From: Candidatus Poribacteria bacterium | GTDB taxonomy: Bacteria > Poribacteria > WGA-4E > PCPOR2b | DNA: 64,000 bases | Assembly: GCA_963665285.1 (NCBI GenBank) | Contig: OY762266.1 | Location: 3,616,001-3,680,000 of the forward strand | Direction: 5' to 3' | Shown here: positions 61,933 to 62,580 of the stretch, piece after piece | How positions within the stretch are numbered: the first letter of the stretch is position 1 | Layout of the letters: every line of letters starts with the position of its first letter | Translations under genes and position numbers: made by a program | Notes under the pieces: generated by a model | Database searches by the model: none | Told to the model about the DNA's origin: nothing | Seen by the model: the letters and a program-made list of their open reading frames with translations, nothing else

Positions 61933-62580
61933 ATGAAAGCGTTGTTTATTGCTTTTTTCGTTGGAACTTGTTGTTTTCTGTCAGCCTGTAAAGGTCGTAA
62001 TAATATAGAGCAGCATAAGGAAGCAGTTACCGTCAAAACGGATCGCATTCCTTATCAACGTTCTCGCGGCGAAAAAACCGTCCCCTCAACCCCAGTGCGA
62101 ACCGATAGCGGAGAATTCTACTTCTTGGATGAAGAAATTGATCAGCTGATTCAGCAGAATACAGAATTTCAGTTGGAACTCGCGGATCTTGGGGCAACGA
62201 GCGAAGCTGTACTACATAAGAATCTTGGAGCTTCCTACTTAGAGCAGGGTAAACTCGATGAAGCCGTTGTAGCCTTCAGAAAGGCGGTCCAGATTGCCCC
62301 TCGCTTTGTTGAGGCACATTACCTGCTCGCCGATGTCTATTCCCTTAAAGGTGAAGGGATTCTATCACGCAAATCCCTTGATCAAGCGATGGTTTTGGAA
62401 GGCAGCTACATTATTGATATTAGGAGCGGGATAATGGATCGGACTCATACTATTATAGAATCTGATCCACCTGCTGTTATAAGGTCTGAAGAGTTAATAG
62501 AACGTACCTTCCCTCCTGAATTTTTTGAAGATCCAAGTAAAATAGGTGTACCCTGCAGGTGGAAGCCTCTACCTAAGTAG
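61933..62580 (+). CDS. Predicted lipoprotein with a GyrB-insertion-like segment and TPR repeats
   Basis: Lipobox LSAC; residues TDRI...TSEAV match GyrB in this window; TPR HKNLGASYLEQGKLDEAVVAFRKAVQIAP; GGAGG SD. Confidence 0.75.
   Translation: MKALFIAFFVGTCCFLSACKGRNNIEQHKEAVTVKTDRIPYQRSRGEKTVPSTPVRTDSGEFYFLDEEIDQLIQQNTEFQLELADLGATSEAVLHKNLGASYLEQGKLDEAVVAFRKAVQIAPRFVEAHYLLADVYSLKGEGILSRKSLDQAMVLEGSYIIDIRSGIMDRTHTIIESDPPAVIRSEELIERTFPPEFFEDPSKIGVPCRWKPLPK

Follow-up and report, generated by a model that had tools for sequence, protein, structure and literature searches.

How does a piece of gyrB come to lie, in frame and in sense, within the gene of a TPR lipoprotein across the chromosomal origin? 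The locus stands in the window, by which we mean the whole 64,000-nucleotide stretch of Candidatus Poribacteria DNA that was analyzed and to whose positions our coordinates refer. The original prediction held that nucleotides 62038-62211 resemble gyrB with 40 identities and one codon gap, that an LSAC lipobox, this segment, and the TPRs share one frame, that about 14 of the identical residues differ synonymously, and that the segment is no assembly duplicate. All of this was borne out. BLASTP aligned the lipoprotein with GyrB amino acids (aa) 609 to 670 with 40 identities and one gap (E, 2e-19), and BLASTN against the whole 6.26-Mb genome gave a sole off-locus match, on the opposite strand at 53554-53729 (75% over 176 nt; E, 1.4e-26), within gyrB (53109..55559, minus strand), which is single copy in the source genome. 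We counted 14 synonymous differences by eye on the alignment, and the sequence together with Pfam confirmed the common frame. The protein and DNA alignments thus support a chimeric gene built from a gyrB fragment.

An assembly artefact was ruled out by a contig from an independent study (X5 record 25), which covers 60894-62883 and hence both junctions with 17 substitutions and zero gaps, and by the insert occupying the same place in relatives G004, G005, G018, and G015. A further contig (X4) is identical to the locus and possibly stems from the source sample itself. A mobile repeat was also ruled out, as BLASTN found two copies only in the genome.

The recipient gene (61933..62580, plus strand; single copy in the source genome) encodes 215 aa. 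It starts with a signal peptide whose lipobox ends at Cys19 (61933..61989), the presumed site of lipidation. The tether start (61990..62037) is the leftover of a decayed first TPR, as seen from DNA alignment with the three-TPR form of G022, and is in other alleles the site of a capture from a cupin gene (C-terminal piece, see below). Then come the captured piece of the gyrB insertion domain, termed type A (62038..62211; residues 36 to 93 of the lipoprotein, GyrB aa 611 to 669), a TPR core of two repeats and a capping helix according to Pfam and AlphaFold (62212..62418), and a variable Pro-rich C-terminal tail, for which sequence comparison distinguished eight motif classes (62419..62577). Pfam TPR_1 matched residues 92 to 125 (E, 2e-10), and structure comparison showed that the core agrees with consensus TPR structures; the product therefore combines the lipobox signal and TPR repeats that define bacterial TPR lipoproteins. 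Genes for signal peptidase II and a LolA-family protein are present in the source genome. The TPR core presumably does the lipoprotein's work, and its putative role is most likely to bind, via the TPR groove, a partner in the envelope or the host; TPR proteins have been put forward as host-interaction factors in Poribacteria, in the available part of that study (PMC3909097).

Upstream of the lipoprotein gene lies an AIR-synthase-related gene (335 aa; 60910..61917, plus strand) and downstream ispH (lytB; 62603..63859, plus strand). The former, which separates rpmH from the lipoprotein gene, was absent from the original prediction. Intergenic gaps are 14 to 22 bp long, and 60675-60704 matches sigma-70 strongly, both of which would fit a single operon. 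Contigs from two metatranscriptome runs of one study, with DNA carry-over uncontrolled, span the gene and its 3' junction.

We then looked into the distribution of the gene. The genus set comprised 20 genomes, with the slot assembled in 18; in G011 and G013 it is probably unassembled, because the neighboring gene is missing there too. An open gene with a lipobox was found in 14/18 genomes. G006 has an open gene that lost its lipobox through offsetting frameshifts, G012 has a broken gene, and G001 and G003 have none, so that the gene is lost or broken in 3/18. The G006 change (locus L039), a frameshift in the signal peptide that is offset downstream so that the lipobox is gone and the TPR frame kept, also occurs in proteins P0057, P0059, P0061, P0065, and P0104. 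G022, from another genus, carries a plain three-TPR form with a frameshift, and a family search over 29 genomes revealed no orthologue beyond it. There is no lipoprotein gene at the slot in G020 and G023; in G020 (L045), an unrelated ORF of ∼300 aa sits between the AIR-synthase-like gene and ispH. The type A piece is whole in the source genome (G000), G004, G005, and G018 and shortened in G015, always at the same place, and is thus present in four other Poribacteria species. Past the lipoprotein stop of G018 (L027), we noticed a ∼120-bp element with many copies in the source genome, probably a small dispersed repeat. A protein search yielded 119 clusters at an E of ≤1e-10 among 373 candidates of 118 to 377 aa, a set biased to intact genes.

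Each of the 119 tethers was compared with all six frames of the source genome, and the best non-self match was taken. This match was the gyrB insertion in 42 cases, the gyrB ATPase region in 19, the cupin C terminus in 17, and the middle of the cupin in 2. The remaining 39 tethers had their best match at distant places, 7 of them with an E of <0.01: five TPR repeats, one shortened type A with gyrB second, and the cupin-type protein P0117. Classification by motif assigned 44 clusters to type A, 19 to type B, 20 to type C, 3 to type D, 25 to an internal TPR duplication, and 8 to a plain form. Donor A is the middle of the GyrB TOPRIM insertion (53554..53729; −5.1 kb from oriC) and donor B is GyrB ATPase aa 57 to 82 (55314..55391; −3.4 kb; E, 4e-9 to 3e-6). 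The cupin gene, found in the loci of 19 genomes, directly follows gyrB (52639..53106) and contributes donor C, a C-terminal piece (52654..52740; −6.1 kb; 14/17 matches with an E of <0.01), and the weak donor D from its middle (52822..52857; −5.9 kb; two best matches with E values of 0.072 and 2.2); all four lie on the minus strand. A DNA profile made from four type C tethers only retrieved the cupin gene at an E of 5.6e-5, with the next match at 1.5 (nhmmer). Since A, B, and C have distinct donors, they represent separate capture events. By sequence comparison, then, at least three independent captures have entered one tether, all from the gyrB-cupin stretch across oriC, and the mid-cupin piece of type D is possibly a fourth.

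Genes nearer to the recipient (the AIR-synthase-like gene, ispH, dnaA, dnaN, and recF) were never the best match for any tether, and the tether searches against the source genome identified no other donor genome-wide. A scan for comparable captures among 4906 crude ORFs of that genome left, after a corrected filter, 11 pairs, of which 2 are internal in both proteins: the gyrB/lipoprotein pair and a shared repeat-core motif. The C-terminal tails had matches with an E of <0.01 in at least 8/119 cases among the matches listed, all far off and none convincing as donors. In the type C protein P0117, a segment of the source genome (G000:C1:5218288-5218332) beats the cupin (E, 2e-4) and resembles the G014-type tether start, either by chance or as a further donor. 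Two other features of the donor side are an IS605-family TnpB (Cas12f1-like TNB and OrfB_IS605 matches) at 51110-52237 on the minus strand, between the cupin region and gyrA, and a 93-aa ORF without a Pfam match at 52395-52676 on the minus strand, which overlaps the cupin 3' end and has a similar ORF at the G013 and G001 loci.

The captures also share their point of entry. Types A, B, and D and the TPR duplication begin at about the same site ahead of the first TPR helix, and type C lies about ten codons farther upstream; types B and D, for which a search for allele DNA found none, are known from proteins only, with synteny assumed. The patches measure 174 nt (A), about 78 nt (B), about 60 to 70 nt (C), and about 36 nt (D). 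In type C, two words are common to the cupin donor and the recipient of G022, GATCAAG at the left end and TTGAC at the right; it is here that the chimeras are joined, having swapped about 6 nt for 60 nt at microhomologies of 7 and 5 nt relative to the G022 recipient. Type A junctions show only 2 to 5 nt of homology; the junctions are old.

We analyzed the position of donors and recipient relative to the origin. An AT-rich stretch with a DnaA-box cluster between dnaN and dnaA (58602..58933) is the predicted oriC; 8 perfect and 4 one-mismatch boxes lie at 58734-58907, and boxes are also present in 7/7 relatives checked. The cumulative GC skew curve of the source genome shows no clear two-arm pattern at this place, and the origin is positioned by its motifs. 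A second cluster of three boxes is found upstream of dnaA (60484..60514, plus strand); boxes thus flank dnaA on both sides, as they do in relatives, which suggests a bipartite origin. The tether is at +3.27 kb from oriC. The donors span 2.74 kb, from −3.4 to −6.1 kb, which is 0.15 to 2.8 kb past the mirror point and 6.7 to 9.3 kb from the recipient; donor B is 0.15 kb from the exact mirror point, and A, C, and D are 1.9 to 2.8 kb off, all on the far side. Recipient and donor genes all point away from oriC, and every patch went sense into sense. For three random donors to fall within 2.74 kb, p is about 6e-7 genome-wide; under a local model (uniform within 10 kb on each side), applied post hoc, p is about 0.05 for three donors and 0.009 with D. 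Within 300 kb of oriC, a general mirror signal is absent: among 77 unique short matches, three further pairs are cross-arm and only the gyrB/lipoprotein pair is near the origin.

We propose, with about even confidence, that the pieces are microhomology-mediated, SPDIR-like patch insertions templated from the sister replication fork. The tether of the exported TPR lipoprotein, 3.3 kb to the right of oriC, would need only an open frame. Left-arm single-stranded DNA (ssDNA) from about the position of the sister fork would rarely reach it, as an Okazaki fragment, a flap, or a template-switching nascent end. A lagging-strand fragment of the left fork would be antisense to gyrB or the cupin gene and able to anneal to the exposed lagging template of the recipient, and annealing at short microhomologies could then build in a patch of about 35 to 175 nt. 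This geometry would bring donor sense into recipient sense, matching every case, and patches would be retained because the lipoprotein tether tolerates any in-frame sequence. Surviving in-frame patches would drift at the neutral rate, shed parts, and shuffle between species with varied tails. According to the available parts of the SPDIR papers, patches are short, in the range of roughly 100 bp (10.1101/2023.11.22.568220), replication-made ssDNA can template them, and donors in wild-type Acinetobacter baylyi come mostly from the terminus region (10.1101/2024.07.02.601687). The 174 nt of type A exceed that range, and together with the terminus-biased A. baylyi donors and the absence of any reciprocal capture, from the right arm into the left, at the loci of 22 genomes, this speaks against the fork model, as do the distance of donors A, C, and D from the mirror point, the short homology at type A junctions, the weak clustering under the local model, and the missing general mirror signal; the sense, in-frame polarity may furthermore be a product of selection.

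We consider it possible, at rather low confidence, that donors and recipient were brought together not by forks but by origin folding (SMC/ParB arm alignment or DnaA looping) or by transient inversions around oriC. Either would account equally well for the locality and the mirror polarity, the 2- to 3-kb offsets suit a loose juxtaposition, the two DnaA-box clusters flanking dnaA would favor folding, and the available part of one study describes rearrangements as common, clustered near Ori, and symmetric to it (PMC12863080). However, gene order across oriC is constant in all genus loci examined, the reciprocal product is absent from the 22 genomes, and a search with the parS consensus revealed no similar site in the vicinity of oriC.

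Codon models bear on how the patch evolves. The insert has an omega of 0.97 (p = 0.94 against 1; 4 sequences, 58 codons), compared to 0.18 to 0.20 for the same stretch within gyrB. Omega is 0.23 to 0.25 in the TPR core (p < 1e-5), indicating purifying selection, 0.60 in the signal peptide (p = 0.08), and 1.79 in the tail (p = 0.03), the last value coming from 7 alignable, recombining alleles under a model without recombination. The Nei-Gojobori method gave 0.61 for the insert, 0.13 for the gyrB stretch, and 0.16 for the core, and parsimony counts of nonsynonymous to synonymous changes were 29:13 for the insert versus 19:29 and 18:30 (Fisher p, 0.006 and 0.003). Indels in the insert preserve the frame in all five genomes with DNA, and AlphaFold assigned a pLDDT of <50 to residues 8 to 67 and about 90 to 96 to the core, with 57 to 68 for the second, helical half of the insert. 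With a constrained core and a neutral insert, the gene is functional and the captured piece is filler; the neutral linker that the original prediction had listed among its options holds.

Alleles of the lipoprotein gene are mosaic. The tether types conflict with a six-gene species tree, G002 and G019 being without type A and their sisters G004 and G018 having it. Between G018 and G019, the TPR stands at 0.79 and the tail at 0.50 versus 0.90 to 0.93 in six flanking genes; the TPR of G002/G004 is at 0.83 versus 0.94 to 0.98, and the tail of G008/G009 at 0.62 versus 0.92 to 0.98. The tail tree unites G017 with G018 and G005 at a support of 100. Interspecies exchange and an old balanced polymorphism would both fit these patterns. 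Diversifying selection on tether and tail, for recognition by phages as a receptor or by the sponge host, with the mirror arm as a de facto cassette pool and with patches that would gain from sheer novelty and pass from species to species, is compatible with either forks or folding and seems to us unlikely as the explanation. The tail omega, the very dissimilar alleles of sister species, the association of type A with five tail classes, and an insert dS of 0.21, below the 0.31 to 0.47 of flanking genes, argue for it, as does the host interaction proposed for Poribacteria TPR proteins in the available part of the cited source (PMC3909097). Yet the insert omega equals 1 and is not higher, the tail test draws on 7 sequences that recombine, 3/18 genus genomes have lost the gene or carry a broken copy, and dedicated recombination machinery and silent cassettes were not seen.

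The ancestry of the type A piece could also be foreign. The four full inserts are monophyletic (UFboot, 100) and have the G012 gyrB as their sister (UFboot, 76), and three of the four match that gyrB at 78 to 80% of nucleotides versus 74 to 75% for the carriers' own. Because the inserts hold outgroup-state residues and group with G012, we take an ancestral or related gyrB, and not the present one, to have served as donor; of the two sources named in the original prediction, "this or a related gyrB," the genome's present copy is thus set aside and the tree points to an ancestral or related allele. Three type A proteins (P0011, P0036, and P0037) are without the one-codon gap and nearer to gyrB, possibly through later re-copying. 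Uptake of DNA from related Poribacteria, when the origin region was exchanged between species, and its integration through illegitimate recombination would agree with the affinity to G012 and with alleles that clearly move between species, but it leaves a single 2.7-kb donor stretch in inverted orientation unexplained, and the residues shared with G012 occur in the outgroup as well, in keeping with an ancestral donor in cis; we regard the foreign origin as quite improbable.

A selected role for the gyrB piece itself, be it as a new folded domain or as a decoy that draws off a phage protein or toxin binding gyrase, is highly improbable: the piece is open in 44/119 clusters, 8/40 full-length alleles keep by inspection mainly its C-terminal half and none the N-terminal half alone, and that C-terminal half is predicted to be weakly helical (pLDDT, 57 to 68) and may cap the first TPR, but its omega is neutral, internal deletions and duplications are frequent (the 8/40 alleles having lost much of the N-terminal half), other alleles have cupin pieces, an ATPase piece, or a TPR duplication in its stead or leave the place empty, and the right junction of type A falls at the start of a GyrB strand and interrupts it. 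Gyrase inhibitors of the cytoplasm would not be encountered by a lipoprotein that is exported. Both options had appeared in the original prediction and found no support, the decoy in view of a neutral, mostly disordered insert (by prediction) in a protein with an export signal and the new domain in view of the neutral omega and a tether predicted to be mostly disordered; the earlier reading of the chimera is therefore partly supported. Within GyrB, donor A is predicted to form a helix, a hairpin, a helix, and a loop in a domain resembling the Escherichia coli TOPRIM insertion; the first match of the Poribacteria insertion model was 3nuh_B (E, 8.5e-3; TM, 0.50; 11% identity), and the captured part amounts to roughly one-third of the insertion, with no independent fold predicted for it. 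Reverse transcriptase-driven capture, as by a diversity-generating retroelement, was rejected, since the source genome (99% complete) has no PF00078 match.

The patches at the lipoprotein gene resemble those of SPDIR in that a short patch, copied from heterologous intragenomic DNA, appears to replace a few bases between microhomologies, most clearly in type C. Types B, C, and D lie within the SPDIR size of about 3 to 100 bp and type A is longer, and the polarity is compatible with lagging-strand ssDNA integration as in SPDIR, a process suppressed by RecA, DprA, and RecFOR. In contrast to SPDIR, these captures are natural, fixed, and recurrent at one gene, with donors on the mirror arm near oriC and not at the terminus. 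Segmental gene conversion drives antigenic variation in vlsE of Borrelia, tprK of Treponema, and pilE of Neisseria. As in those systems, the variable region of an envelope protein takes up copied pieces and alleles are mosaic; unlike them, the donors here are active, unrelated housekeeping genes, the time scale is that of species, and there are no silent homologous cassettes, the gene being single copy and gyrB its only off-locus DNA match in the whole-genome BLASTN.

In Gram-negative lipoproteins, the N-terminal linker between lipid anchor and folded domain requires length and disorder but not sequence, according to the available part of one study (10.1101/2021.01.05.425367); the low-confidence tether described here is of this sequence-tolerant kind, with the difference that its source can be traced to specific genes. 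The origin-symmetric rearrangements described in the available part of PMC12863080, which cites Tillier and Collins (2000) and Eisen (2000), likewise involve opposite-arm exchange near Ori with polarity kept, whereas here non-reciprocal copies of 35 to 175 nt entered coding sequence and gene order stayed constant. What is notable with respect to known microhomology patch capture is the recurrence and the donor geometry. We found no literature on the lipoprotein gene or on recurrent mirror-arm capture, in a search that left most subscription papers outside and is thus weak evidence of novelty.

Here a single bacterial gene has, in nature, repeatedly gained coding sequence from unrelated essential neighbors. 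The donor geometry points to the two replication forks, and capture may record DNA swapping between sister forks. Two questions become testable here: what supplies the intragenomic templates when patches arise by microhomology, and whether DNA passes between the sister forks close to oriC. Tolerant origin-near genes in other taxa are predicted to carry mirror-arm fragments, which would give rise to chimeric proteins and to gyrB domain matches that mislead. We suggest tentatively, as an unlikely reading, that the lipoprotein gene is a natural diversifying locus without dedicated machinery, to which sister-fork exchange brings patches of whatever genes stand opposite on the mirror arm, with cell-surface selection retaining and spreading the new ones. 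Were this true, chromosome position alone would set the donor pool of a gene, and the alleles of the Poribacteria lipoprotein would preserve, as fossils, the co-location of forks right after initiation.
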